In this document: in pieces, positions 79 through 51,150 of the stretch
How positions within the stretch are numbered: position 1 is the first letter of the stretch
Layout: every line of letters begins with the position of its first letter
Origin: a phage
Reading direction: 5' to 3' (one strand)
Length of the DNA stretch: 51,150 nucleotides
Sequence record: PX930853.1
Program-made: the position numbers and the translations under genes
The notes under the pieces: model-generated
Told to the model about the DNA's origin: nothing
The model's input: only the letters and a program-made list of their open reading frames with translations
Database searches by the model: none

Positions 79-110
79 GCATTTGAAAATGCTATTATCT
101 GCATTGTCAT

Positions 111-128
111 TAGCAAAAAGTGCTATTT
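111..128 (-). promoter_or_regulatory. partial/degenerate copy of conserved intergenic box
   Basis: TAGCAAAAAGTGCTATTT resembles reverse complement of AATAGCACTTTTTG(T/C)TAAAAC box. Confidence 0.25.
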
Positions 129-5975: not shown

Positions 5976-6164
5976 CTTTAATGCTCCTCGTTGCTTTGTG
6001 TGTGCATTGTAGCCATTTGGTTGATTTAGTCAATAGTTGTTTTGTTTTTTTTCTGTTTTCTAAACGTTCTCAGATGGCAATAAAACAAATTTGACGAGTA
6101 AGTTAATGATTAATATGTGTTATTTTTCTTGTTCCTCTGTTCTCTCAGATACGCCGGATTATAT

Positions 6165-6335
6165 ACATACACATGAATGATGGCACATACAGATACACAG
6201 AAAGAAAAATCACCACAAACAACCAAAACCACAAGAAACACAGATAACAAGAAAAAACAAATATACATACATAAATAAATAAACTATTGATTTTATATGT
6301 ATATATCTATTTTATTAATTATTTATTGTTCTTAT
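6165..6335. repeat. AC/AT-rich non-coding repeat, copy A (homologous to 35615..35775)
   Basis: Shared blocks AGATACACA, A(C)CA(A)GATAACAA, ATACATA(C/T)ATAAATAAATAA in same order and orientation in both copies. Confidence 0.6.
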
Positions 6336-6404
6336 GTTGGCTAAAATTTGTGCTAAATTTACGCCGTCTTAATTCCGATAACACCGGAAAACAAAAAATA
6401 ACAA

Positions 6405-6424
6405 GTAGCACTTTTTGCTAAACG
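6405..6424 (+). promoter_or_regulatory. conserved intergenic box (TTGCTA variant), ~55 bp upstream of lipoprotein gene
   Basis: AGTAGCACTTTTTGCTAAAC; TATAGT hexamer ~21 nt downstream. Confidence 0.35.
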
Positions 6425-6477
6425 CGCTCCTTAAAATCGTGTATAGTTGAACCAACAACAACAAAGGAGATGAAAAG

Positions 6478-6705
6478 ATGAAAAAGTTAATTGCCGTTTT
6501 AATCGCAGCCGTTGCGCTGACTGGTTGCGCAAATATGCCTAAACGTGAATGTACGGCTATTTATGAAAATAGCGGAATGCAGTATTCAGTTGCTATCTTT
6601 GGGGCAAAACGAGTTGGCGATCGCACTCTTGTTAAGGCTGGCTATCCATTTAATTTTCAGTGGGTAAGCATTGATAACTTTAAAAACGCTGATTGCAGTC
6701 TGTAA
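6478..6705 (+). CDS. lipoprotein, Cor-like superinfection-exclusion candidate
   Basis: Signal peptide with lipobox LTGC (MKKLIAVLIAAVALTGC); AGGAG RBS; isolated plus-strand gene next to tail genes, as for cor in FhuA-dependent phages. Confidence 0.5.
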   Translation: MKKLIAVLIAAVALTGCANMPKRECTAIYENSGMQYSVAIFGAKRVGDRTLVKAGYPFNFQWVSIDNFKNADCSL

Positions 6706-17129: not shown

Positions 17130-17763
17130 TATGTTTTGTTTGAATGAATCATTTCTAGCGCCTTTTGTTCCATGATGCGCAAATCATTTAGCGCCATCTC
17201 CCGATCCTCAATCTTGTAAATGTCAAAAAGCATAGGCAAAACGTTATAGTCGAACCCATACACACTGCCGATAGTCGATCTCCATTGCGTTTGCATAGCG
17301 CAAAACAGATCCCAAGATTGAAACATTGATTCATCAAAAATTACCTCCGGCGGCTCCTCCCCTTCGTAGTCTGAACGGGATAGGCCGACGGCCTCTAATT
17401 GTGCGTCAGTTGGCGGCTTGAGGTAAAACAGGTAAACCGCCCGCTTTAGTTTTTTACCCGCTGCCCCGCAAGTGCTTTCATATAATGACCAGTCAGCGAT
17501 AATGACGCAGAAGGGTAATAATCCAGCAATTTAGCAACATTTTCCTCGTTAAATTCATCTTCCAGATCCCAACCAGAAGCAAGGAAGGTGATCATTTCTA
17601 CGTCGCTCATCGGCTTTTCTGCCGTGTATCGTTCGTGAATCTCGCTTGCCTTCTTGTGGCGCACGGTAAAAACAATAACTTGCTCATCACCATTTGGAAG
17701 CACAAAAGAAACAGGTAGCTTAAAATCAGGCAGTGGGCCTAACGTTAGTTTCATCTTTGCCAT
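17129..17763 (-). CDS. tail assembly chaperone G-T fusion via -1 programmed ribosomal frameshift
   Basis: Slippery heptamer A AAA AAC (17455..17449, minus strand) at end of G; -1 frame open with no stop to 17129. Confidence 0.6.
17446..17763 (-). CDS. tail assembly chaperone G
   Basis: 105-aa ORF between major tail protein and tape measure; AAGGAGA RBS. Confidence 0.7.
   Translation of the reverse strand: MAKMKLTLGPLPDFKLPVSFVLPNGDEQVIVFTVRHKKASEIHERYTAEKPMSDVEMITFLASGWDLEDEFNEENVAKLLDYYPSASLSLTGHYMKALAGQRVKN
17449..17455 (-). other. -1 frameshift slippery site AAAAAAC
   Basis: In-frame X XXY YYZ heptamer two codons before the G stop. Confidence 0.55.
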
Positions 17764-17777
17764 CTCAAGATCTCCTT

Positions 17778-17797
17778 ATAGCACTTTTTGTTAAAAG
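17778..17797 (+). promoter_or_regulatory. conserved intergenic box, oriented opposite to flanking late genes
   Basis: ATAGCACTTTTTGTTAAAAG; TAGATT hexamer ~22 nt downstream; faces the 3' end of the major tail gene. Confidence 0.3.
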
Positions 17798-17837
17798 TGG
17801 AATTGATTTATTTGATAGATTGATTTTACAGGAATGA

Positions 17838-17862
17838 AAAAAGGGGCGCAACGCCCCTTGTT
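17838..17862. terminator. bidirectional terminator after major tail protein gene
   Basis: AGGGGCG-CAA-CGCCCCT stem with A6 upstream and TTGTTTT downstream. Confidence 0.6.
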
Positions 17863-18525
17863 TTAATTGATGTCGGAAGATAAGAACGTAAATCGACCTT
17901 TCAGAGATACGGAGAGGGAAACAGTTTCCATTTCGTTCATGGTGGTTTGCGGAATGTCATTAAAGGACAATACGCCAGCCCAGCAACGCATCTCTTTAGC
18001 TTTCGGAACGTACATACGCAAAGCGGTTACGTCGCCGGATTCCTCAGCCTCGCGCAAGATCGGATAAATCGGATTATCATATTCATGCGCGAAAGTGTAG
18101 GTAAGAGAAACGGCGCTCTTATAGGTCGGTAACTGCTGCTCCTGGTCATCAGCCAAACACTGATAAGTGTAATACTGTTGCTCGCCGCCGTCCTGCGCAA
18201 GATCCTGTACGCAAGGAATCTCTACCCAAGATTTCACCTCTCGGAAAGTTGCTGTGTTCTGTCCTTCTGGAAATACGTTTGTATCTTTAGTGCTAACACC
18301 TTCAAGAGTAACACTTACATTATCTGAAACTTCCTTAACTCGAAGCACGCGACTAACAAGTTTACCCCAAGAAGATGTTTCAATAAGAACATAAGCGCCC
18401 TTTTTGATGCTTTGAGTGTTTGCAGTCGTAAAAACAGGATCATCAGCATTGATGATTTGAGTAGCGCTAATAGGCTCACCCATATTAACGCCGATGAAAA
18501 TTTGAGAACCATTAGGCAAGTGCAT
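17863..18525 (-). CDS. major tail protein
   Basis: 220-aa ORF immediately upstream of G/G-T/tape measure; followed by strong terminator. Confidence 0.75.
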   Translation of the reverse strand: MHLPNGSQIFIGVNMGEPISATQIINADDPVFTTANTQSIKKGAYVLIETSSWGKLVSRVLRVKEVSDNVSVTLEGVSTKDTNVFPEGQNTATFREVKSWVEIPCVQDLAQDGGEQQYYTYQCLADDQEQQLPTYKSAVSLTYTFAHEYDNPIYPILREAEESGDVTALRMYVPKAKEMRCWAGVLSFNDIPQTTMNEMETVSLSVSLKGRFTFLSSDIN

Positions 18526-18527
18526 GA

Positions 18528-18929
18528 TTATTCCTCCTTTGTATCAAGCCTAACACTGAAACGGATCGGCAATAACCAACCTGTTTCACTTTTTAGTAAT
18601 GTGTTGACGTTTGCCCCCTCGCTAATATAGCCAGTTTCAATCATTCTACCATCATAGAAAAATCTCGCAATCTCTTTAGCCAGCAAACGCGCTTTATCAG
18701 TGCCGCCGCCAGGAGGAATGACAATTCCAACCTGAACCAAACCGATGTAAGAAACACATTTTCTATCAAGAGATATGCGATCCGTGTCCGCTTCCATGTA
18801 GTTAAATTTTAACCACATAGAACCATCTCCAGGCGGCACAAAATCAACGTTTTCATAGGCTATCTTAAATCGTGATTCATATTCAGCCGCCAGCGCCTTT
18901 CTTGCCGCCAACATTAAATCATAGTGCAT
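18528..18929 (-). CDS. tail terminator / tail completion protein, putative
   Basis: 133-aa ORF directly upstream of major tail gene; assignment by position. Confidence 0.4.
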   Translation of the reverse strand: MHYDLMLAARKALAAEYESRFKIAYENVDFVPPGDGSMWLKFNYMEADTDRISLDRKCVSYIGLVQVGIVIPPGGGTDKARLLAKEIARFFYDGRMIETGYISEGANVNTLLKSETGWLLPIRFSVRLDTKEE

Positions 18930-19371
18930 TTTTTGCCCTCGAATCCTTTATTGCCTTAGCCATATAAGATCGCAGCTTTACCGCCACGATTCCAAGTACG
19001 CCGGACGGCGCTTGTTTTGAATGACCGTATTCAAGCGCGTTGGCGTAAATGAGCATGTTTGAAAAATAGATTGACCGCACCGCGCCACCGCCACGCATGA
19101 TTGCATATATTGCTCGCTTGCCTTCTGCAATGGTTTTACTACCATCTCGATCGTATTGGTTGAGCGCATATAGAGGCGGCTTGTTTGCTGTTATCTGCCA
19201 GTTAGCTTTATATCGGCCCGTATCAACTGGCGAGCGCTTTACAAGATCCTCGTGGACGTTTGTCGCGAACATTTCAACACAATCAACAAGGCCGCTGCTT
19301 ACTGAATCAATCCACCTGCTTATATCACCGTGAAATTCTCTGATCTTATAATTATCAGCCATGCACAGCAA
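18919..19371 (-). CDS. neck protein (HK97 gp10-like), putative
   Basis: 150-aa ORF in head-tail joining cluster; assignment by position and size. Confidence 0.4.
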   Translation of the reverse strand: MLCMADNYKIREFHGDISRWIDSVSSGLVDCVEMFATNVHEDLVKRSPVDTGRYKANWQITANKPPLYALNQYDRDGSKTIAEGKRAIYAIMRGGGAVRSIYFSNMLIYANALEYGHSKQAPSGVLGIVAVKLRSYMAKAIKDSRAKNAL

Positions 19372-19735
19372 TCCTCCTTAATATCGGACGATAAGCTGCC
19401 GTGATGTTAGTCTGCCTGACTGGTCTTGCTTCAACGACAACATAACGTTCGCCATCAATTTCAATCTGATAACCATTTTTGATCTCAGTTTCATTGGTGA
19501 ATATCCCCAACTTGTCGGTTACTCGGATTGTTTCACCGTCAACCTCTCTAGTTCTAGGGGATCTAACAAGCCCCTTTATCATCACTGAAATCTCCGGCTT
19601 GGTAACTTCCTCTCCGCCGATAATCTCAACTCCGCCCTGCTGCGTGATGCACTTAAACATACCGTTAGCGTCGCTGAAAAAGTTAATCCCAGCCGTAGCC
19701 ATTCTTGCAATCTCATTGTAGTTCATCGGCAACAT
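19355..19735 (-). CDS. head closure / head-tail adaptor protein, putative
   Basis: 126-aa ORF in head-tail joining cluster. Confidence 0.4.
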
Positions 19736-20142
19736 CTCCGGCGCAATCCAGTTACAAGGCCAAAACCTCCACCGTGCTTACGGTTTAATACTTCGTACAT
19801 TTTGCCCCACGGCGTTTGTCGGATCTGCTTTCCGCTTGTATCGGAAGAGATTCGATCAAACGTCTGACTAAACTCACCAGTCAGAGTGAACGAGGCGACG
19901 CGGCGGGAATAGCTTTCTACGCTTTCACCTTCCTGTTTCATTGCCCCGTCTAAGGTCATAAGGTGAAGAGTGTAAAGAGCAACCGCTTTCTGGTATGAGT
20001 TTTTAAACCGCTTTTTGCAAACAAACTCTTTAGCAAGCTCAATCCATGCCACAATTAAATCGGGATCAACTTGTTGCATTGGCGGCGCTAACTTTACGAT
20101 TTGCTGCATGATTTCAGCGTCTGTGTAAAATTCATCTACCAT
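19723..20142 (-). CDS. head-tail connector protein (gp6-like), putative
   Basis: 139-aa ORF following capsid genes. Confidence 0.4.
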
Positions 20143-20188
20143 TTTGTTTTCTCCAGATGTGACAAAGGGCGCATAAGCGCCCCAATTA

Positions 20189-20455
20189 TTAATATTCGCC
20201 GCCGTCCTCTAGCTCTTTGCGGCTCTTGCCCTCGGTAGGATCTTTTTTGCGCTTTTTCTCCGCTTTCGCCTTGATTTGCTCGTTAATTTCGGAATTGTCT
20301 TTAACTTCCACATCACCGCGAGCGATCAGGTATTCAACTGCGGAATCATTAATGCGATCGGATTCAATTTCAATTTCATCACCAGGATGATAACGCTTAC
20401 CGTCCATAATAATCATGCAAACGCCAGTTACTTTAAGTTTTAAAGTTTTGCTCAT
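20189..20455 (-). CDS. hypothetical head-associated protein
   Basis: 88-aa ORF ([11 protein letters not shown]...) with GGAG RBS; highly charged C-terminus. Confidence 0.4.
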
Positions 20456-20512
20456 TTTGTGTACTCCATAAATAAAGAAAGGGGAACCATTAAGGCTCCC
20501 CATGTTATCTAA

Positions 20513-21484
20513 TTAATCAGCTTTTTTCAAGCCAGTAATAAGCACCATCGTAAAAGGACGATAAATCGTAAGGCCAGTACACTTGGAAGTGCAAGGAACC
20601 TTGAAATGTAGGTCTTTTGGCTGCGCCGGAAGCATGTTAAACGCTTCTGGAATCTCAATGCTCATGTTCATTGGATCTTTTTCGTAAACCAAGCAACCTT
20701 TCGTACCTTTGCCGTCAATATCCTCAAGCTCTGCGATAGAGTCGATAGTGATACCGCCGTTTTGCTTCTGGAAGTATTCCAGATAACTTTCAGTGGTATT
20801 TTCCATTCGAACCGTCAGGACTTTGCGCATGGACGGCGGGATCAGGATGTTAGTCGCGCGGTGCTGGCCTTTTGTTACTTCCTCGATCGTTTCGATTGCG
20901 GCCTCCAGTTCATCGCTTGCTACCTGCGGGAACTTGGTATTGCCGTCATTGCTCATCCAGCCTTTGGATGCAATTTTCGTAAGGTTAGGGTGATCGAAAA
21001 CGGAAACGATCTTATGAGGCTTAGAACCTTTGAACACCAGGAAGTTAATCAACTGATCATGCGCATTTTGCGCAGCGTTAGCCTTGCGAGTTGACAGGCT
21101 CTTGCCAGTTCGCTGACCTGCTTTAATCTCATCAATGGAGATCAGATAAGCGTTACCCAGGCGGAACACTTTGCCAAACTCAGAAGTCATCAGCGCGTCC
21201 ACAGTTGGCAGATCATCGGTGTAGTCGGCGATAATTTTCGCGTAGCCAACCTTATCAAAAGTCTGATATTCGAAAGTCTTGTCAGTATCAGAAAGCTCGT
21301 TTGTTACAGGGAATACGCGAAGCGCGGAACCTGCCGGATACTCTTTCTCGTATGCGGTAGAGCGGATCTTGTGTAGCTCTTGAGCGGTCCAAATACCCAT
21401 ATCAGAAGCGTCGGTCTTAACACCCTGAATCTGCAAATGATTCGCTACAATCGTAGCATCTAGTTCATCATATTTTTTAGCCAT
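20513..21484 (-). CDS. major capsid protein
   Basis: 323-aa ORF with GGAGG RBS, downstream of scaffold and decoration-like genes. Confidence 0.8.
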   Translation of the reverse strand: MAKKYDELDATIVANHLQIQGVKTDASDMGIWTAQELHKIRSTAYEKEYPAGSALRVFPVTNELSDTDKTFEYQTFDKVGYAKIIADYTDDLPTVDALMTSEFGKVFRLGNAYLISIDEIKAGQRTGKSLSTRKANAAQNAHDQLINFLVFKGSKPHKIVSVFDHPNLTKIASKGWMSNDGNTKFPQVASDELEAAIETIEEVTKGQHRATNILIPPSMRKVLTVRMENTTESYLEYFQKQNGGITIDSIAELEDIDGKGTKGCLVYEKDPMNMSIEIPEAFNMLPAQPKDLHFKVPCTSKCTGLTIYRPFTMVLITGLKKAD

Positions 21485-21499
21485 TTTGTTTCCTCCATA

Positions 21500-21528
21500 A
21501 AAAAGGCCGTTAAATGTAACGGCCTAGA
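21500..21528 (-). terminator. hairpin + T6 immediately upstream of major capsid RBS
   Basis: AGGCCGTTACATTTAACGGCCT dyad followed by TTTTTT on minus strand. Confidence 0.45.
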
Positions 21529-21529
21529 T

Positions 21530-21550
21530 GATAGCACTTTTTGTTAAACG
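21530..21550 (+). promoter_or_regulatory. conserved intergenic box, oriented opposite to flanking late genes
   Basis: GATAGCACTTTTTGTTAAACG between decoration-like gene stop and capsid gene start. Confidence 0.3.
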
Positions 21551-21573
21551 TGCAATGTTTTTTATGCTACTAG

Positions 21574-22356
21574 TTATTCGCCAGCGGTTTTCGTAAATAC
21601 AATATCAAACTGGTCAGCAACTCCAGAACCATCATTAGCAGTCCAGGTGACGTTAACTCTTCCTCCTACACCAGTAGGAACAACAAGACCTGTGCGGCTA
21701 ACACTGGCAACCTTTGGATATTGTGGATTTGTAATTGTCCACTGACCCGTTTTGTCATCAGCCCAAGTCGGAACAACCGTTACCTTTAATTGAACGTTGT
21801 TGATCGTCTCTGTGCCCTCTATGTATCCATTTTCAGCCTCAATAATCGCACCAGTGAGAAGATATTTTCTATGATAAAGCGGCGTTATTCTGACTCCGAC
21901 TATGTTTATTGTTTCATCAAACTTGTAGAAGTCACCAGTAAAAATCCAGCCATCGACGATTTCATCGCCATCACTCTTTGCTACAAAACCATCATTGTTA
22001 ACATAAACAAGATCCCCATGCTCAGGGGGAGATTCAATTGTTTGAGTTACACACCATACAACACCTCTTGTCAAAATGTTGATGGCGTCTCCTTCCTTGT
22101 AGTCGGAATACCCGTCTTCCTCGTTAACTGTCGTTGTTATGTTGCTTCTTAGCGCAACACCCGCAACCACGGCATCCTCCTCTTTGTGGTCAACAAATAT
22201 GTTGTAACCGCCGATTCTCTCCTTAAAGAAAACAACCTTACCAGCAATGATCGATTCAGAACCACAAACGCCAGTACCATCAATATTGTAGCGAGTAGAA
22301 TCAACCAAACAACCAGGGCAAGAAAGACCCATAACAGATGAATAATCTTTAGCCAT
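21574..22356 (-). CDS. putative capsid decoration/structural protein with C-terminal Ig-like domain (paralog 1)
   Basis: 260 aa; N-terminal 160 aa paralogous to 22407..22916 product; C-terminal segment resembles bacterial Ig-like fold. Confidence 0.5.
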   Translation of the reverse strand: MAKDYSSVMGLSCPGCLVDSTRYNIDGTGVCGSESIIAGKVVFFKERIGGYNIFVDHKEEDAVVAGVALRSNITTTVNEEDGYSDYKEGDAINILTRGVVWCVTQTIESPPEHGDLVYVNNDGFVAKSDGDEIVDGWIFTGDFYKFDETINIVGVRITPLYHRKYLLTGAIIEAENGYIEGTETINNVQLKVTVVPTWADDKTGQWTITNPQYPKVASVSRTGLVVPTGVGGRVNVTWTANDGSGVADQFDIVFTKTAGE

Positions 22357-26140: not shown

Positions 26141-26169
26141 TTGATTATATAACTTTTTAGCAATTAGTG

Positions 26170-27738
26170 CTATTTATTGCGTAGACCTGCCAGCTTTTTC
26201 ATCCTTGCTACCGGATCATCTGCCAAATTCATTTCGACGTTAACAGCATCAACTATATTATCGACAATATCATCATGGGGATGAGAATCATCAAAAGTGA
26301 ATGCTGCAACCTCTGCTAGTATCTCAGGCAGCATGGGGTGATTTTCTGGCAGTGCCACACGTCCGGCCCTCATTACTGGCGCGGCGTCCATTGCTCGCGT
26401 CACCTTGTCATTGCTTCGCTGAACGGGATTTATATCAATCGGGATCTTCTTTTTGGCCCCCTGAATCAAACCCGTGCCGCTGGCCTTATCCTCAATGTGG
26501 ATACGTCGCAAGCTGCCACACTCCTTATTGCGCTTCCAGCACTGGTTAACGAAGGCAATAAAATTTAATTCAAGATCCGGCGCTTCCCACTTTCCGCGAA
26601 TGCCATCAATGAAGTAAACTCGATTCTTATACATCCCCCAATAACAAAAAACCGAATAGTCGTTAAGCTCTCCGGCCTTCTGCGCGGTATCTCCAGTAAT
26701 AAATGTGTATTCAAAGCGATCCGGTTTTGGTAGTGCGCACTTTTCGCCGCTGCCGTAATACTGGAACCACTCTGTTTTAAACACGTTCCCGCCAAGCGCG
26801 ATTGGTTGCTGTTGGTATTGGCTGGCGAACGTGTAAGGATCTGCATTGCGCAATGCAAGCAACTCCTCCGCGCTTTCCTTCGCAGGCCAAAATGAATAAT
26901 GAGCGACGCCATCTATCATCACTGGCTTACTTGACAGCACATCACGATCAAATTCAGGCTTCAACCAATCAGGAAGCGTTTCGCGGTATTCTTTCGTAAC
27001 CAGCGCCGGAATGCTCACGACTTTAAACTCAATACCACCCATCCCGCCATTAAGCATGAACCAGGTGGAATCATTAACGTGTAGTCGCTGTTGCACCATA
27101 ACAATTGGCGTTGTGTCTTTCATTCGACGCGATCGCACTGTGTTTTTTAACCGCATATGAATAGCCTCGCGCTTGACCTTAGAAAGCATATCATCCGGCT
27201 TGTCTGGATCGTCAAGAACCAGCATACCAGTAAAACCATCGTCCATATAGCCGCCACGCAAACCTGTTACCTGGCCGCCAATAGAACGTGAGTTAACTTG
27301 CAATTTAACCTTGCCGCCTTCGGTGACTATCAGATCTTTAGCGCTCGCCTTTGCCAGTTTTCCTGGCCATAGCTCTTGCCACTCATGAGAACCAATAATC
27401 TCCTTTATCCGGTTGCTGTTTTGCTGGACAAGGCCATCACTAAACGAAAGGTTAAGATTTCTCACCTTCCGGCTTTTCAATGACGCGTAGGGTGACATGT
27501 GGATCGAGAAAATCTCAGTCTTGCCGCTACCTGGAGTAATGTTGAAAATCACATTCCGCGACTCTCCATTGATGATCTTCTCTACCTCACTGCACAATAA
27601 GCTAAAATGCCAGTTGCTCTGGAATTTTTGCCCCTGCAATAATTGGAACCAGATTCTGATCATCTTTTCGAATGAATGCTCACTGATTTCTTTAATGGCT
27701 CGCTTTTGCGCAGCCGTCAAATCTTCCCATATGATCAT
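26170..27738 (-). CDS. terminase large subunit
   Basis: 522 aa; Walker A-like PGSGKTE, nuclease-type C-terminal acidic residues; start overlaps small-subunit stop. Confidence 0.85.
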   Translation of the reverse strand: MIIWEDLTAAQKRAIKEISEHSFEKMIRIWFQLLQGQKFQSNWHFSLLCSEVEKIINGESRNVIFNITPGSGKTEIFSIHMSPYASLKSRKVRNLNLSFSDGLVQQNSNRIKEIIGSHEWQELWPGKLAKASAKDLIVTEGGKVKLQVNSRSIGGQVTGLRGGYMDDGFTGMLVLDDPDKPDDMLSKVKREAIHMRLKNTVRSRRMKDTTPIVMVQQRLHVNDSTWFMLNGGMGGIEFKVVSIPALVTKEYRETLPDWLKPEFDRDVLSSKPVMIDGVAHYSFWPAKESAEELLALRNADPYTFASQYQQQPIALGGNVFKTEWFQYYGSGEKCALPKPDRFEYTFITGDTAQKAGELNDYSVFCYWGMYKNRVYFIDGIRGKWEAPDLELNFIAFVNQCWKRNKECGSLRRIHIEDKASGTGLIQGAKKKIPIDINPVQRSNDKVTRAMDAAPVMRAGRVALPENHPMLPEILAEVAAFTFDDSHPHDDIVDNIVDAVNVEMNLADDPVARMKKLAGLRNK

Positions 27739-34608: not shown

Positions 34609-34664
34609 TTTTGTTTCCTCAATCTCGTTTCGATGAGGCTATTATGCCAGGCTTTGCGCCTGGC

Positions 34665-34686
34665 GTTTTAACAAAAAGTGCTATTT
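34665..34686 (-). promoter_or_regulatory. conserved intergenic box (minus orientation)
   Basis: Reverse complement AAATAGCACTTTTTGTTAAAAC followed by GCCAGGC-GCAAA-GCCTGGC dyad and CATAAT. Confidence 0.4.
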
Positions 34687-35414: not shown

Positions 35415-35614
35415 TTCTGCCTCCTGGTTGTTAGGTGTGGGCATTATCAATAATGCTATTTAATGTGTCAACTGTTTTTTCTTGTTCCAGCGTGTTTTAT
35501 CAATTTTATATGGTGGCACAATAACAATATGGGCGTTATTTTTCCTTATAAATCAATGTTATCATTGCTTGTTATCGAAGTTTTCTCGCGGAAAGTGCCA
35601 TATAGATATATATG

Positions 35615-35775
35615 CCCCTACATACCCATACACACATATAGATACACAAAAACTATATACCCCCACCAAATACCACAATAACCAAGATAACAAAAGAGAA
35701 TATATAGATACATATAAATAAATAATCCTTATTTTTCAATGTATTATATAGGTATTGTTTGTTATTTTTTGTTAT
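35615..35775. repeat. AC/AT-rich non-coding repeat, copy B (homologous to 6165..6335)
   Basis: Same ordered sequence blocks as copy A; both copies lie in divergent intergenic regions. Confidence 0.6.
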
Positions 35776-35889
35776 CGTATTTTGCGGAAGGTCAACAAAA
35801 GAACAGGTGGGAACGGAACATAACAACCACTGACAGCCAGGCGGAAAAGTGAGGCAAGAGGGGAAGGTTTCACTATCTCCCCTGCAATC

Positions 35890-35985
35890 AATGATTAAAC
35901 GTGATTACTTTCTCATCAAATTTGCAAATGCAATCATCATTTTGACGTGATTTGATTACGAATGATTACTTTTGATTATTTCTAT
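35890..35985. promoter_or_regulatory. phased GATTA(C) repeats and 10-bp palindrome ATTTGCAAAT (candidate operator/origin-like element)
   Basis: Five GATTA(C) units at ~10-11 bp spacing in two clusters; perfect palindrome near 35920. Confidence 0.3.
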
Positions 35986-36010
35986 CACAGTCCTGGCGCT
36001 AACCGTCAAA

Positions 36011-36029
36011 TGGCACTTTTTGTTAAAAC
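36011..36029 (+). promoter_or_regulatory. conserved intergenic box (TGGCAC variant) ~58 bp upstream of first rightward early gene
   Basis: TGGCACTTTTTGTTAAAAC. Confidence 0.4.
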
Positions 36030-36087
36030 TCAGGCCGTCTGATCGGGTACATTGCACACATCAAAACGAACCGCTCAGGAGATAGCA

Positions 36088-37333: not shown

Positions 37334-37388
37334 CGATGTGCGCCTGAATGGTATATTACACCCATCGACAACAAGCGAGGATTTAAAG

Positions 37389-38802: not shown

Positions 38803-39330
38803 ATGAATTGGCACGATTACTTTACATACAATCCAGAAACTGGAAAGCTGTTCTGGAAAGAAAGAAAAGATATTCACCCATCAAGAGTTAAACAATGGAA
38901 TGCTTGCAATGCTGGTAATGAGGTTGGCTCTTTTGGTAGTGGTGGCAGATATTTAGAAACTGCACTTACTGTAAACGGAAAACGTTATAACCTGAAAGTT
39001 CATAGAATATGCTATGAAATGCACTATGGGCCTATACCGGAAGGAAAGGAGGTTGATCACGTAAATCACATCACGACTGATAACAGAGCAATAAACTTTG
39101 AGTTAAAAGATCACAAAGGAAATATGCGAAACACATCAAAGCAGAAAAACAATACAAGTGGCATACCAGGTGTGCATAAAAATAAACATGGCAAATGGGT
39201 TGTAAGGGTTGGAGGCGGAAAGCGAGGAAGTAGGATTTATATAGGTTGTTTTTCCAGTTTTGGAGATGCTGTTGCCGCAAAACGTAAAGCCGAGAATGAA
39301 TTGGGGTATCATAAAAATCATGGGAAATAA
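38803..39330 (+). CDS. HNH homing endonuclease with AP2-like DNA-binding domain
   Basis: YNPETGKLFW...VDHVNHITTDNRAINFEL HNH signature; C-terminal GIPGVHKNKHGKWVVRV AP2-like segment. Confidence 0.65.
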   Translation: MNWHDYFTYNPETGKLFWKERKDIHPSRVKQWNACNAGNEVGSFGSGGRYLETALTVNGKRYNLKVHRICYEMHYGPIPEGKEVDHVNHITTDNRAINFELKDHKGNMRNTSKQKNNTSGIPGVHKNKHGKWVVRVGGGKRGSRIYIGCFSSFGDAVAAKRKAENELGYHKNHGK

Positions 39331-40006
39331 AGTTGCTTACTCAATGTTTGATGGATCTGGAATCATGCTGCTTGAATATGCGAAGGCTGGCTATCAATGC
39401 TATTGCTTTAACGCTGATGAAGGCAATCACGGCGAATATTTCATCAAGATGAAACATGAAAATCTGCATTATGTGAATATGTGGATTGATGAAAATTTCA
39501 TTGAAAGAATCAGTAAGATTGGTATTCCAAAACCAGATATTGTATTTGGATTTCCAGACTGCACCATGTTTGCCCAATCAGGAATCAAGCACGTGCGAAG
39601 CGATGATGATATTCAGGTTGCGCTCAAAAATGCAATCATGGTTGAAACTGTCGGGAATCATTTCGGTGTCCCCTGGATGGCTGAGAATCCTGTAGGCCGA
39701 CTATCAACGCTATGGCGAAAGCCTGATTTTTATTTCAATCCTCGCGATTTTGGTAACTACCTGGACGAATCCGATGGATCTTTTCACCCCAAGATGCCGC
39801 TAAAGGATGGCTACACAAAAAGGACTGCTATCTGGTGCGGCAACGGATTTACAGAACCCGAACGCAAGCCGTTATCCAATGATGATGGCGTAATGTTCTT
39901 TTGGGGTTGGAAGTTTTTAGGCGGTAAGTCTGCCAGAACAAAGCAACTACGCTCCCTCACTCCGCGCGGCTTTGCTCGCGCCGTCTTTGAGTCAAACTCA
40001 AAATAG
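39320..40006 (+). CDS. putative SAM-dependent DNA methyltransferase (C5-cytosine-like motifs, atypical)
   Basis: FDGSG (motif I-like), FGFPDC (PC-like motif IV with inserted Asp), AENPVG (ENV-like); start overlaps 3' end of HNH gene. Confidence 0.4.
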   Translation: MGNKVAYSMFDGSGIMLLEYAKAGYQCYCFNADEGNHGEYFIKMKHENLHYVNMWIDENFIERISKIGIPKPDIVFGFPDCTMFAQSGIKHVRSDDDIQVALKNAIMVETVGNHFGVPWMAENPVGRLSTLWRKPDFYFNPRDFGNYLDESDGSFHPKMPLKDGYTKRTAIWCGNGFTEPERKPLSNDDGVMFFWGWKFLGGKSARTKQLRSLTPRGFARAVFESNSK

Positions 40007-40022
40007 CACTTTTTGTTAAAAG
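40002..40022 (+). promoter_or_regulatory. conserved intergenic box
   Basis: AATAGCACTTTTTGTTAAAAG then CCAGGT-GTAAAAA-ACCTGG dyad then CATAAT; ~50 bp before ATG 40076. Confidence 0.4.
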
Positions 40023-40075
40023 CCAGGTGTAAAAACCTGGCATAATCACATCGAACAAACAAAGGAGATCTGATC

Positions 40076-40748: not shown

Positions 40749-42329
40749 ATGTTTTCATTAGAAACGAACAAATTAACTCCACAGCAAATAATCGCTATGG
40801 CTGAAAGCCAGAACCTTTCACCAGTTCGCGTATCAATTCAGGCTAACGGCTATCGCCAGTCGTCCAGCTTTTGGGGCGACGTGAAGGATGTAAATAGCGG
40901 TCACGATCGCTACCCCGTAATTTCTCTTGGTAATGATATTGATGTTGTCGGAAAGTTATCACGCAGTATTGCGCGATCCGTTCAATTCCCTGAATCATCG
41001 GCTTACATGCACTTTATCGGCTGCATTTCTGCCGCCATGCTTGGACGCTTTACGGTTGACTATCACGGGACCGATCAGCCGACTGCGATTTACGTCGTTA
41101 CAAGCCAGCCGCCGTCAACTGGTAAATCTGCGATCAACAGTATGGCTATTGCTCCGATGATTGCGGAAGTTGAGAAGATCAACGAGCAACGCCGCAAGGA
41201 AAGAAAGAAAATACAGGCAAAGTTGGCAGGTCTTGCAAAGGAGATGAAAAGCGAAAGATCAGGCGCTGATATGGAATCTCTATACCAGGAAAAAGAGGAT
41301 CTGGAAGAGAAGCTGGAAAAGATGTGTGATATAACTTTCCCTGTTTCAGATACAACTCCAGAAGGCTTGGCAAAAATCAACAACAAGCAAGGTAACTTTG
41401 CCGTAATATCTGACGAAGCAACAAGTATTAACAGTCTGTTAGGCTTGACCTATGCCAATAGCGAAAGGAAGACTAACAGTGAGCTAGTGCTTAAGGCGTG
41501 GGATAATGGTCACGTATCAATTGCCCGTGCTAATGCTGACAATAACATGAGTTTTCGCGCACTTGGATGTATGAGCGTTATAGCCCAGGATGAAACGATA
41601 AGCGGAATCATGGACGCTGGATCGCGCGGTATCGGTGTGAGTGAGCGCTTTTTGTTGGTCCGTGAGGAATCATTCTTAGGCCGTCGCTCATTCATTGATG
41701 AAAATGGTGATTCTACCTATGAGGCGGTGGATCCTGAATTGAAGGCCCAATATTATCAATTGGTGCATAACATCATGAGCGAATCAAATATATCGCTGAA
41801 AATAAGCCGTTCAGCTATGCGAGTGCTCAACATTGCTCGCCAGGATATGGAACCGCATCTTGCAGACGGCGGAAAGTATTCTCATACAATGTTACGCGGT
41901 GCGCTGGGTAAAATGGATAAACAGGTGATCAGGCTTGCTTCCGTCCTGCATGTTATCCGCAACTGGTTTAATCCTGCTGGATACCCGCAGAAGTCGAAAG
42001 AGATCGACGTGGAAACAATGCAAGAGGCGCTGATCATGTTTCAGGAATTGAGCAAAACATACATTAGCGCCGCCAATGCTTCTGGTTATGCTGGTGATGA
42101 TGCTGAAATGGGCAAATTGATTGAATTGATCACTAGACACGGCAAGGCTAATAAAGGGATTCTGAATATTCGCGCCCTGTACGAATCAGCGAGAAAGGTA
42201 AAACCTTTCGTTGGTCAGGCTGGCGTAATGAAGAGGATAGAAGGGCACTTGCTGCCAATGCTGGAAGAAAGAAATTATGTTTGTGTGATTAATGGTGTTA
42301 TTTTTGTCAATCCAATACTGCTGGGATGA
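40749..42329 (+). CDS. large early protein with P-loop NTPase-like motifs, function unknown
   Basis: 526 aa; Walker A-like PPSTGKSA, Walker B-like FAVISDEAT, central charged coiled coil; AAAGGAG RBS. Confidence 0.55.
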   Translation: MFSLETNKLTPQQIIAMAESQNLSPVRVSIQANGYRQSSSFWGDVKDVNSGHDRYPVISLGNDIDVVGKLSRSIARSVQFPESSAYMHFIGCISAAMLGRFTVDYHGTDQPTAIYVVTSQPPSTGKSAINSMAIAPMIAEVEKINEQRRKERKKIQAKLAGLAKEMKSERSGADMESLYQEKEDLEEKLEKMCDITFPVSDTTPEGLAKINNKQGNFAVISDEATSINSLLGLTYANSERKTNSELVLKAWDNGHVSIARANADNNMSFRALGCMSVIAQDETISGIMDAGSRGIGVSERFLLVREESFLGRRSFIDENGDSTYEAVDPELKAQYYQLVHNIMSESNISLKISRSAMRVLNIARQDMEPHLADGGKYSHTMLRGALGKMDKQVIRLASVLHVIRNWFNPAGYPQKSKEIDVETMQEALIMFQELSKTYISAANASGYAGDDAEMGKLIELITRHGKANKGILNIRALYESARKVKPFVGQAGVMKRIEGHLLPMLEERNYVCVINGVIFVNPILLG

Positions 42330-42837: not shown

Positions 42838-42858
42838 AATAGCATTTTTTGTTAAAAC
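42838..42858 (+). promoter_or_regulatory. conserved intergenic box
   Basis: AATAGCATTTTTTGTTAAAAC then CCCGGC...GTCGGG dyad then TATATT. Confidence 0.4.
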
Positions 42859-42918
42859 GCCCGGCATAGTGTCGGGTATATTTGTTTCATCGAAACGAAA
42901 CAACCAAAAGGTAAAATT

Positions 42919-46023: not shown

Positions 46024-46080
46024 TTTTTATTTCCTCATGTTTGCTTCGTTGAAATAATTATGCCCGACACTAGGCCGGGC

Positions 46081-46101
46081 GTTTTAACAAAAAGTGCTAT
46101 T
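46081..46101 (-). promoter_or_regulatory. conserved intergenic box (minus orientation)
   Basis: Reverse complement AATAGCACTTTTTGTTAAAAC then GCCCGGC...GTCGGGC dyad then CATAAT. Confidence 0.4.
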
Positions 46102-49584: not shown

Positions 49585-49640
49585 CTTAAACCTTTAAAAA
49601 ATGCCATTTTGAGTATATAATAGACTCATTACAATAAACT

Positions 49641-49660
49641 GTTTTAACAAAAAATGCTAT
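49641..49660 (-). promoter_or_regulatory. conserved intergenic box (variant) upstream of helicase gene
   Basis: Reverse complement ATAGCATTTTTTGTTAAAAC; TATTAT 22 nt after TTGTTA. Confidence 0.4.
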
Positions 49661-49671
49661 GAGGTGACTAG

Positions 49672-50148
49672 ATGAAAGATGCACGAATTGCAGTGTCTAC
49701 GGGTGAGATCGACAAGCGCACTATTAACGGTAACAACGGAACGCGACGAGGTAAAGACAAAAAGCCACGAAAACACAGAACCGGATTTCTTATCCTGCGA
49801 GATGAGGTAAAAGCAAGCCTGAAATCTCGCCTTGACATTCTGATCGAGTATTACGGCGGCGTTCCTGCTATGGCTCGACGTCTGCGCGTATCTCAGCAAG
49901 TTGTTAACCAATGGCGAAAGCGTGGTATGATTTCAGCCGCTGGAGCACAAAAGGTGCATAACGACTACAAATATAATGGATGCAAAGGATACCGCGCCTC
50001 GTTTTGTCGTCCAGATCTGCGGTTTGATTCTAACGGCAAGCCTCTTACTACCCGTTGCGACAAATACGAAATGTTGCGCGTAGTCAAAAATTCAGACTAC
50101 GAACCAGGCGGACGATTCTACAAAGGTGATAACAGCACGAATAGCTAA
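49672..50148 (+). CDS. putative DNA-binding protein with Cro/YdaS-like helix-turn-helix
   Basis: GGVPAMARRLRVSQQVVNQWRKRGMIS HTH-like segment; basic N-terminus. Confidence 0.45.
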   Translation: MKDARIAVSTGEIDKRTINGNNGTRRGKDKKPRKHRTGFLILRDEVKASLKSRLDILIEYYGGVPAMARRLRVSQQVVNQWRKRGMISAAGAQKVHNDYKYNGCKGYRASFCRPDLRFDSNGKPLTTRCDKYEMLRVVKNSDYEPGGRFYKGDNSTNS

Positions 50149-50202: not shown

Positions 50203-51132
50203 ATGAATACTGAAAACTTTATGACCTATCAGAAAGAAGATGTTTTGCCATATATGAAGGGGTTATGGCGTGAAGCACTACAAAGCATTTGCGGACTGCA
50301 TAGCGATGTTTTCAACAAAAAGCATCAGCCTTGCCCACACTGCGGCGGTAAGGATCGTTTTAGATGGACTGATAAGCTAAATGAAGAGGGCGACGGCGGC
50401 GCGATCTGCAACGTATGCGGTAACGACACGGGGATCGGTTGGTTAATGAAATTAACTGGCGAACCTTACAGCGAGGCCATCAACATTTTGGGCCGCTTCC
50501 TCGGCAAAGTGCCACAAGATTACAGGATCAGAGCAAACAAGCGCGCTTCACGTTCTTCTGGCTACTCGTTCGGGAAACAGGCAAGTCATGAATGCTGCGA
50601 AAAAGTGATGGCAAAAACATTAAAATTCGATCGCACACCCTTAAGCGTTTATGAGGGGATATATCCGCCGGAAGATTGTTATTATGATTGCGGCGTCAAG
50701 GATGGTCGATACATTCACGCGCTACCTTGTCACCTGGTGCATGATGACGGGCTGGATGATGAAATGTGTAACGTGCTTTTCATTGATGAGGATGGAAAGG
50801 ATTGGTTTTTAGCTCGCGACTACACGCGCGGGTCTGTTGTTAAAACAGGTAGCACAGATAAGACGATCTATTTGTGCCTTGATTGGGTTGATTCTCAGCA
50901 TGTTCATTTATCAACTGGTCAAGAGGTGTGGGCCTGCTTTACTCCTTCAAATCTTGAAATGGTTGCGCATAGATATAAAGGAGAAAGAAGAATGCGCGTA
51001 GTCTGCCGGAAAGATGATCGTGATGTGATAATCGCGGCAGAGGAAAGAGGTCTTGACATAATGATGCCTGTTAACGATAATTTTAAACAGGGCGTAGAAA
51101 GAAAACTCTACAAGCCCGAATCACTGCTATAA
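50203..51132 (+). CDS. DNA primase (zinc-finger type), putative
   Basis: CPHCGG...CNVCG zinc-binding motif near N-terminus, acidic DxD-containing core; GAGG RBS before ATG 50203; 3' end repeated at 1..37. Confidence 0.6.
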   Translation: MNTENFMTYQKEDVLPYMKGLWREALQSICGLHSDVFNKKHQPCPHCGGKDRFRWTDKLNEEGDGGAICNVCGNDTGIGWLMKLTGEPYSEAINILGRFLGKVPQDYRIRANKRASRSSGYSFGKQASHECCEKVMAKTLKFDRTPLSVYEGIYPPEDCYYDCGVKDGRYIHALPCHLVHDDGLDDEMCNVLFIDEDGKDWFLARDYTRGSVVKTGSTDKTIYLCLDWVDSQHVHLSTGQEVWACFTPSNLEMVAHRYKGERRMRVVCRKDDRDVIIAAEERGLDIMMPVNDNFKQGVERKLYKPESLL

Positions 51133-51150
51133 AACTCCGCTAGTATTACC
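51096..51150. repeat. 55-bp end overlap identical to 1..55
   Basis: Direct comparison of window ends. Confidence 0.9.

Follow-up and report, generated by a model that had tools for sequence, protein, structure and literature searches.

The genome of a T1-like coliphage (sequence record PX930853.1; the whole stretch analysed, 51,150 nucleotides, is referred to below as the window) contains a repeated 19-nt box, two copies of which lie just upstream of the tail assembly chaperone (TAC) gene and of the major capsid protein gene, on the strand opposite to these genes. We propose, with a probability of about one in two, that the protein activating the early promoters also restrains late promoters through such reversed boxes. 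This proposal builds on the match between the box and the Escherichia coli marbox recognized by MarA, SoxS and Rob, on the geometry of the promoters and on the conservation of both reversed architectures among relatives, which are directly observed; the binding protein, the transcription starts and the repression itself are predictions from sequence and comparison.

The repeated box and its likeness to the marbox

When up to three mismatches are allowed, the 18-mer of the box has 18 copies in the window, for 0.13 expected from shuffled sequences. Its core, GCAHWWWWTGYYAAA, is found without any mismatch 16 times in the window, 11 times in T1 and 10 times in the Klebsiella phage KLPN1, with 0.0-0.05 exact cores expected from shuffles (0.0 for the window). 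Reading these copies against the gene strands, 15 of the 18 are co-directional with the genes and three are opposed to them (17778, 21531, and 108-126), and all three reversed copies precede late structural genes. The copy upstream of the TAC gene (ATAGCACTTTTTGTTAAAA, 17778-17796, plus strand, with the marbox core at 17781-17795) shows no mismatch to the family consensus, and the copy upstream of the capsid gene (ATAGCACTTTTTGTTAAAC, 21531-21549, plus strand) shows one in the 19-mer. A preliminary description of this DNA had already placed two plus-strand boxes upstream of the minus-strand TAC and major capsid genes and had noticed that they lack the GC dyad found downstream of most forward copies. 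Both points are borne out, as there is no dyad in the 19 nt following either reversed box (gtggaattgatttatttga and gtgcaatgttttttatgct).

The box agrees with the published MarA/SoxS/Rob consensus, which reads exactly as the core above, at 15 of 15 positions, with the published gcannwwntgnnaaa, again at 15 of 15, and with AYnGCACnnWnnRYYAAAY at 13 of the 14 specified positions, position 19 being an A in the box and likewise in micF. In a matrix of 54 promoter-type copies from the window, T1, and KLPN1, the variable positions of the box are the degenerate positions of the marbox (2, T/C; 8-10; 14 and 15, T/C), while G4, C5, A6, G13, and A16-18 are nearly invariant. The resemblance extends to authentic E. 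coli sites: the KLPN1 copy ATAGCACGTTTTGCTAAAAc is identical at 17 of 20 positions to the reverse complement of the mar marbox (GATTTAGCAAAACGTGGCAT), and the window box at 15 of 20 to the micF marbox (ACAGCACTGAATGTCAAAAC). Outside its two 5-bp half-sites, the box is asymmetric (A1/A17, C7/T11). By its sequence, the repeated box is an asymmetric transcription-activator site which is indistinguishable from an E. coli marbox, and binding to it is predicted.

The surroundings of the forward copies point in the same direction. In E. coli micF, the equivalent of the 19-nt box is followed after exactly 19 nt by TAGAAT and then, 7 nt further, by the annotated 5' end; this site has been described as centred near -41, and class II marboxes are defined as forward-oriented sites overlapping the -35 element. 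In the phages, a hexamer with A2 and T6 is present exactly 19 nt past the box for 16 of the 22 copies in the window, 16 of 22 in T1 and 13 of 15 in KLPN1, as compared with two or fewer at most other spacings. Given their orientation, their overlap with the -35 region and this 19-nt spacing, forward copies have the layout of class II activator-type promoters, and are predicted to be activator-dependent promoters of early and middle genes. They share with micF-like mar/sox/rob promoters the same consensus, the forward placement over the -35, the 19 nt to the -10 and a centre near -41; they differ in being located on a virulent phage, with about 16 exact-consensus copies per 51 kb to which binding is predicted. 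Two other readings of the forward copies were discarded. A factor-independent promoter would have to use TTGTTA within the box, which lies 22 nt from the -10, and we judge 22 nt too long between the -35 and -10 elements of a sigma-70 promoter. A nut-like RNA signal of the boxA/boxB type is opposed by the dyads, which vary in sequence and are annotated as terminators in T1, as well as by several dyad-less copies which still have TAnnnT at 19 nt.

These GC dyads, located between forward boxes and the -10, are rho-independent terminators in the annotation of the T1 record (for example, 46044-46081, 34628-34665, and 42858-42895 in the window, and 38973-39001, 39998-40024, and 41980-42007 in T1, locus L008), so that the promoter of each early module overlaps the terminator of the preceding one. 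Just past the -10 hexamers of many forward-box promoters, in the window as well as in T1 and KLPN1, there is a conserved leader motif, CATCGA(A/C)AACGA(A/G) (e.g. 42882-42895, 37358-37372, and 36054-36068). The gap separating the large terminase gene from the portal gene contains a degenerate co-directional box (ATAGCACTAATTGCTAAAA, 26155-26173, minus strand), which lacks a TAnnnT at 19 nt and has a terminator hairpin immediately after it.

The repeat itself is already known. A 2024 re-annotation of phage TLS described a 21-nt repeat, aaATAGCACnnnTTGnTAAAA, present in 21 copies and also found in T1, Rtp, and Rogue1 (PMC11447400). These repeats were described as oriented along the direction of transcription, about 76 nt upstream of start codons, and their function was left between a stoperator, an enhancer site and an UP element (PMC11447400). 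The window copies ttATAGCACTTTTTGTTAAAA and tgATAGCACTTTTTGTTAAAC fit this consensus, and both sets belong to the same sequence family, including the capsid-proximal copy, which is DR7 in Table S1 of that paper and is given there on the 'neg' strand without comment (PMC11447400). The published rule on orientation and distance does not hold for the two window copies, which lie on the strand opposite to their genes and are separated from the start codons by 15 nt and 47 nt. The TLS paper makes no remark on reversed copies, on the overlapping capsid promoter or on the likeness to marboxes. What appears to be undescribed is the marbox identity of the repeat, the reversed-box capsid promoter, and, at the TAC gene, the decoy promoter set back-to-back.

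Promoters overlapping the reversed copies

At the major capsid protein gene (20513-21484, minus strand, identified from the annotation of near-identical phages and from protein alignment), the reversed box is embedded in a sigma-70-type promoter pointing in the gene direction, P_MCP. Its -35 is TTGCAC (21550-21555, minus strand), replaced at the same place in relatives by TTGAAC, TTGACG, TTGACC, or TTGATT or else kept, and its -10 is TATCAT (21528-21533, minus strand), with TATCAT, TATATT, TATTAT, or TATTCT in relatives. The spacer of 16 nt (21534-21549), GTTTAACAAAAAGTGC, is the reverse complement of the box, which also supplies the TG of the extended -10 (21536-21535) and the first three bases of the -10 itself, the whole reading TTGCAC-N16-TGcTATCAT. 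The GCAC of the box thereby overlaps the extended -10 TG. The counterpart in T1 and SA12KD, TTGACG-16-TGcTATTAT, matches the promoter consensus at 10 of 12 positions, and the SA12KD record annotates it as a promoter.

We evaluated the conservation of this arrangement in 80 IMG/VR loci collected by capsid-protein homology, i.e. independently of the box, with capsid identities of 54-99%. Of these 80 loci, 71 have a reverse marbox core in the 160 nt preceding the capsid gene, and in all 71 but one the box forms the spacer of a promoter directed along the gene; the exception is L084, for which the match retained by the script was weak and unrelated. In its conserved form, the -35 begins with TTG, its other three bases being variable. 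In the most distant group (54-55% capsid identity), TTGACG-N16-TATTCT and the TG are kept and GCAC is changed to TCAC, indicating that the constraints acting on the promoter and on the box are separable. In the box direction, the hexamer 19 nt past the 21531 copy is ACTAGT in the window, and the T at -7 is missing in all listed relatives but one (TATGCT, L033). The lack of a -10 in the box direction, together with the conserved promoter in the gene direction, argues that the capsid copy is not an antisense promoter. From sequence, this box is instead the spacer and extended -10 of a conserved gene-direction sigma-70 promoter for the capsid gene.

Between P_MCP and the Shine-Dalgarno sequence (SD) of the capsid gene, a terminator scan detected a hairpin followed by a T-run (21504-21525, minus strand), the full fold of which reaches -15.7 kcal/mol. 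The predicted start of P_MCP, at about 21521, lies inside the 5' arm of this hairpin; for a transcript beginning at 21522, folding gives -8.8 kcal/mol and leaves a 5'-terminal stem of 6 bp. The hairpin would thus stop read-through from upstream, and transcripts from P_MCP would carry only the 6-bp 5' stem. In the most distant relatives, a terminator is found upstream of the capsid promoter instead. Many relatives from other genera cease to resemble the DNA of the window at about 21556-21570, where the capsid box and -35 are located, which marks a mosaic joint; the gene upstream of the box, encoding a protein with Phage_cement and Big_2 domains in the window (21574-22356, minus strand), is swapped for different genes in other genera.

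The copy upstream of the TAC gene (17446-17763, minus strand; Pfam Phage_TAC_4, E = 5e-31) shows another arrangement. The SD of this gene (AAGGAG) immediately adjoins the 5' end of the reversed box, which is followed on the plus strand by a 19-nt spacer devoid of GC dyad (17797-17815) and by the hexamer TAGATT (17816-17821), i.e. the -10 of a promoter directed against the gene, P_anti, and then by GATTTTACAG. The distance of 19 nt from box to hexamer is that of the forward boxes and of micF. A reverse box is present at the TAC site in 30 of the 72 loci with a TAC match, the T1 counterpart being located at 18832-18850. Conservation at this site was measured on 24 distinct relative sequences: the spacer mostly carries 0.1-0.9 bits per column (1.1-1.5 in its last four columns), whereas positions 1, 2, and 6 of the hexamer carry 2.0 bits each, for 0.5 bits at positions 3-5. 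The hexamer is TAnnnT in all 24 sequences despite the varying spacer, and such invariance over drifting sequence is the signature of a working -10. The suggestion of the preliminary description that both reversed boxes are antisense promoters is thus supported at 17778 and fails at 21531, where the promoter points in the gene direction.

On the other strand, a second hexamer, TAAAAT (17823-17828, minus strand), is found a few bases past the T-run of the major-tail terminator and is the putative -10 of a promoter in the gene direction, P_TAC. On the gene strand, the block CTG-TA(A/C/G)AAT-C is conserved in relatives carrying the box, and relatives without it have TAATAT, TATAAT, or CATAAT at the same position after the terminator. 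As such hexamers follow the terminator with or without the box, a separate promoter directly after the terminator appears to serve the TAC gene, the box cassette being inserted backwards between this promoter and the SD. Predicted starts are an A at 17828 (plus strand) for P_anti and an A at 17816 (minus strand) for P_TAC. With adjacent -10 hexamers and predicted starts separated by 12 bp, both promoters would melt the same DNA and could not be occupied together. The reversed box would occupy positions +21 to +39 of the predicted TAC transcript.

Downstream of P_anti lies an intrinsic terminator at the 3' end of the major tail protein gene (17863-18525, minus strand). This hairpin with T-run (17841-17859), detected in a terminator scan, scores on both strands, as anticipated in the preliminary description (17838-17862), with folds of -15.8 and -15.5 kcal/mol and z-scores of about -3.7 and -4.1. 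The P_anti RNA would accordingly extend from 17828 to about 17866, i.e. over some 36-40 nt, and not over the roughly 50 nt that had been proposed. The terminator tail facing P_anti is weak in T1-type relatives, where transcription could continue antisense into the major tail gene.

Other explanations of the TAC copy were tried and rejected. For a gene-direction extended -10, the hexamers in relatives are TATAAG, TATCAA, or TATTAA, without the T at -7, and the hexamer of the window overlaps the SD. Reading the reversed boxes as upstream, reverse-oriented class I marboxes of gene-direction promoters is no more satisfactory, because box centres lie 24 and 56 nt from the start codons and there is no room for a start placing the box at -56 to -85.

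A third reversed copy (ATAGCACTTTTTGCTAATG, 108-126, minus strand) lies between a TATTAT (93-98) and the SD and ATG (144) of a tail-fibre gene, with a terminator (54-79) near the TATTAT. In the box direction, TAnnnT is missing at 19 nt, and the equivalent place in T1 is devoid of a box. All three reversed copies are thus located on, or just past, predicted promoters of late structural genes. The back-to-back design of the TAC site recurs at a forward copy, namely the box of the helicase promoter (49642-49660, minus strand), which faces away from the promoter of a regulator gene (49672-50148, plus strand). There, the -10 hexamers overlap (TATTAT at 49622-49617, minus strand, for the helicase; TATAAT at 49616-49621, plus strand, for the regulator) and predicted starts are 18 bp apart. 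The regulator promoter, TTTAAA-17-TATAAT, is of the plain sigma-70 type, and its equivalent in TLS, P57, is one of only three promoters called sigma-70 in that phage (PMC11447400). The box falls between about +15 and +33, in the leader of the regulator transcript, and this position is suggestive of autoregulation or of a switch.

Proposed mechanism and alternative explanations

Under our proposal, a single protein would recognize the box in all its locations. Bound to forward copies at about -41, it would activate early and middle promoters. At the capsid gene, the protein sitting on the spacer box would compete with RNA polymerase and sigma-70, the GCAC of the box being superimposed on the extended -10 TG. 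At the TAC gene, the activator would bring polymerase to a backwards decoy promoter, thereby excluding the TAC promoter, and the bound protein may also obstruct TAC transcription at +21 to +39; the backwards transcript would end after about 36 nt at the bidirectional terminator. It is the existence of two reversed copies which suggests a negative action of the box on late genes, and at the capsid promoter the sign of the control is probably repression. The preliminary description had considered that the two copies could be orientation-independent protein-binding sites timing late gene expression. Timing by a bound protein comes close to the model favoured here, and independence of orientation does not fit it, since the site is asymmetric and its placement promoter-specific. 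That description overlooked both the marbox identity and the gene-direction promoters which overlap the two copies.

Several observations weigh against this proposal. In the window, the -35 of P_MCP matches at only 3 of 6 positions, giving with the -10 (5 of 6) 8 matches out of 12, below the threshold of the promoter scan. No recognizable -35 accompanies the TAC promoter, and the T1 terminator tail facing P_anti is poor, so that a short RNA is not the universal outcome. Some forward boxes lie inside the late operon (11903 and 26155), and the box is therefore not a clean marker of early genes. A marbox located between -35 and -10 can also activate, as at flgBP2 (PMC12781870), which weakens the case for repression through the capsid box, located at -13 to -27. 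The conserved regulator described above, whose promoter is a canonical sigma-70 promoter in TLS, could be the real binder. Finally, a literature search found no paper linking marboxes to T1-like phages, and a full-text search for ATAGCAC returned unrelated primer lists only.

Which protein binds the box can be approached from both sides. Among phage open reading frames (ORFs), a phmmer search with MarA gave no match and the best hit of a MarA/SoxS/Rob profile, at E = 0.19, fell on an antisense ORF (both with query sequences entered by hand), and a Pfam scan of 42 small proteins detected no HTH_18 or AraC domain. The match beyond chance, the asymmetric site, the micF spacing and a box nearly unchanged between E. 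coli and Klebsiella phages favour the host factors MarA, SoxS, and Rob, which we consider slightly more probable than not as the binders; the phage regulator is a less likely candidate, and something else a still less likely one. This regulator, Cro/YdaS-like, is the only recognizable DNA-binding regulator among the 42 small proteins and is conserved in T1 and KLPN1. If it were the binder, the same cis-architecture would be served by a phage protein made first from its plain sigma-70 promoter, which would activate box promoters, limit its own promoter and restrain late ones, the marbox likeness being coincidence or mimicry. The factor-independent promoter, the box in the leader of its own transcript and an imperfect dyad within the box, TAGCA-N5-TG(T/C)TA, speak for this tentative alternative. 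It has to face, however, a marbox match of about 22 bits with the same degenerate positions and the same 19-nt spacing as micF, an asymmetry outside half-sites which is unlike typical dimeric Cro-type operators, and a box which is nearly constant between phages whose regulators are only 57-63% identical across genera. A wider form of the host hypothesis, in which T1-family phages wire their whole transcription programme to the Mar/Sox/Rob stress activators, is equally tentative. About 15 consensus marboxes per genome would then be class II early and middle promoters, with reversed ones curbing the capsid, tail-chaperone, and tail-fibre promoters. The hundreds of high-affinity sites on replicating DNA would titrate the limited Rob, MarA, and SoxS, switching early promoters off and late ones on, so that genome copy number would act as the timer.

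The remaining alternatives concern what the reversed copies do. That both are promoters of short antisense RNAs regulating the major tail and cement-protein messages is unlikely: the conserved promoter at 17778, the stable fold of its 36-40-nt product and the weak facing terminator in T1-type relatives, with a possible antisense run into the major tail gene, would suit it, but the 21531 copy has no usable -10 in the window nor in all listed relatives but one, the 17778 RNA consists essentially of the terminator and an A-tract, whose conservation the terminator alone explains, and an Rfam scan of the whole window matched no family. We similarly regard as improbable a positive role of the capsid spacer box, in which bound protein would distort the DNA and help its opening as MarA does at flgBP2 (PMC12781870). 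This precedent and a spacer of 16 nt, one below the optimum, are consistent with such a role; against it, flgBP2 is a sigma-28 promoter with its box 3 bp farther upstream (-16 to -30), GCAC overlaps the extended -10 TG contacted by sigma-70, the sole sigma-70 example of a spacer marbox (pbpG) is repressed, and the T1 promoter already looks strong (TTGACG-16-TGcTATTAT). Lastly, the reversed copies would be devoid of regulatory role if they were remnants of promoter cassettes, or else conserved stretches at which mosaic modules recombine, as may be imagined from the end of similarity at 21556-21570 in many relatives and from the different upstream genes across genera. This is very unlikely, as position, orientation, and key bases are conserved across genera down to 56% capsid identity, the TAC cassette retains TAnnnT while its spacer drifts, and the flanks of the capsid copy are adapted to -35 and -10 hexamers which are absent from forward copies.

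The arrangements described here can be compared with those of other systems. Negative autoregulation of E. coli crp reportedly involves a divergent promoter activated by CRP: an activator site downstream of the start is said to drive an overlapping promoter on the opposite strand, and polymerase there to exclude the crp promoter. The TAC copy resembles this logic, with another activator, in a late phage operon and not as autoregulation. The stoperators of mycobacteriophage L5 block elongation and have a single orientation relative to transcription. As in the window, they are many asymmetric sites in short intergenic gaps, a comparison raised by the TLS authors (PMC11447400), but in the window most copies show the geometry of promoters, and those which are reversed overlap with promoters. 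At E. coli pbpG, which MarA, SoxS, and Rob repress, a marbox overlaps the sigma-70 spacer as at the capsid gene, the comparison being limited to this overlap. At flgBP2, a sigma-28 promoter activated by MarA, the marbox likewise lies within the core promoter, between -35 and -10 (-16 to -30; PMC12781870), as compared with -13 to -27 in the sigma-70-type P_MCP, and the outcome may be opposite. A 2026 paper on Drexlerviridae and transcriptomics contains no T1-type transcript data.

Genomic setting and significance for T1-like phages

The structural region of the window is 97-99% identical to those of phages vB_Eco-B1.2, FritzSarasin, and atuna, FritzSarasin being classified in Drexlerviridae, Tempevirinae, Warwickvirus; the phage of the window is itself placed in Drexlerviridae, Warwickvirus. 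Its late operon is encoded on the minus strand. The genome is 51,095 bp long and circularly assembled, with positions 1-55 repeated at 51096-51150; this exact repeat of 55 nt comes from the assembly, as an overlap in a genome which is circular or circularly permuted, and does not represent a terminal repeat in the biological sense. A low-complexity stretch, rich in A and C and ending in ...ATACATA(C/T)ATAAATAAATAA, is present at 6203-6282 and 35665-35725, in both large ORF-poor gaps (about 5981-6478 and 35450-36052), which are possible origins or regions of early control.

T1-like phages count among the most common coliphages, are notorious as contaminants of laboratories, and have no polymerase or sigma factor of their own. 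The marbox reading makes the question of repeat function raised by the 2024 re-annotation of TLS experimentally simple, and would tie phage development to a host regulon which is central to antibiotic tolerance. The reversed copies would illustrate two compact designs for a negative action on late genes: one puts the site inside the spacer of a promoter, the other sets a decoy promoter back-to-back with the genuine promoter. If true, the host-wired programme would couple infection to the bile salts, oxidants, and antibiotics which activate Mar/Sox/Rob.

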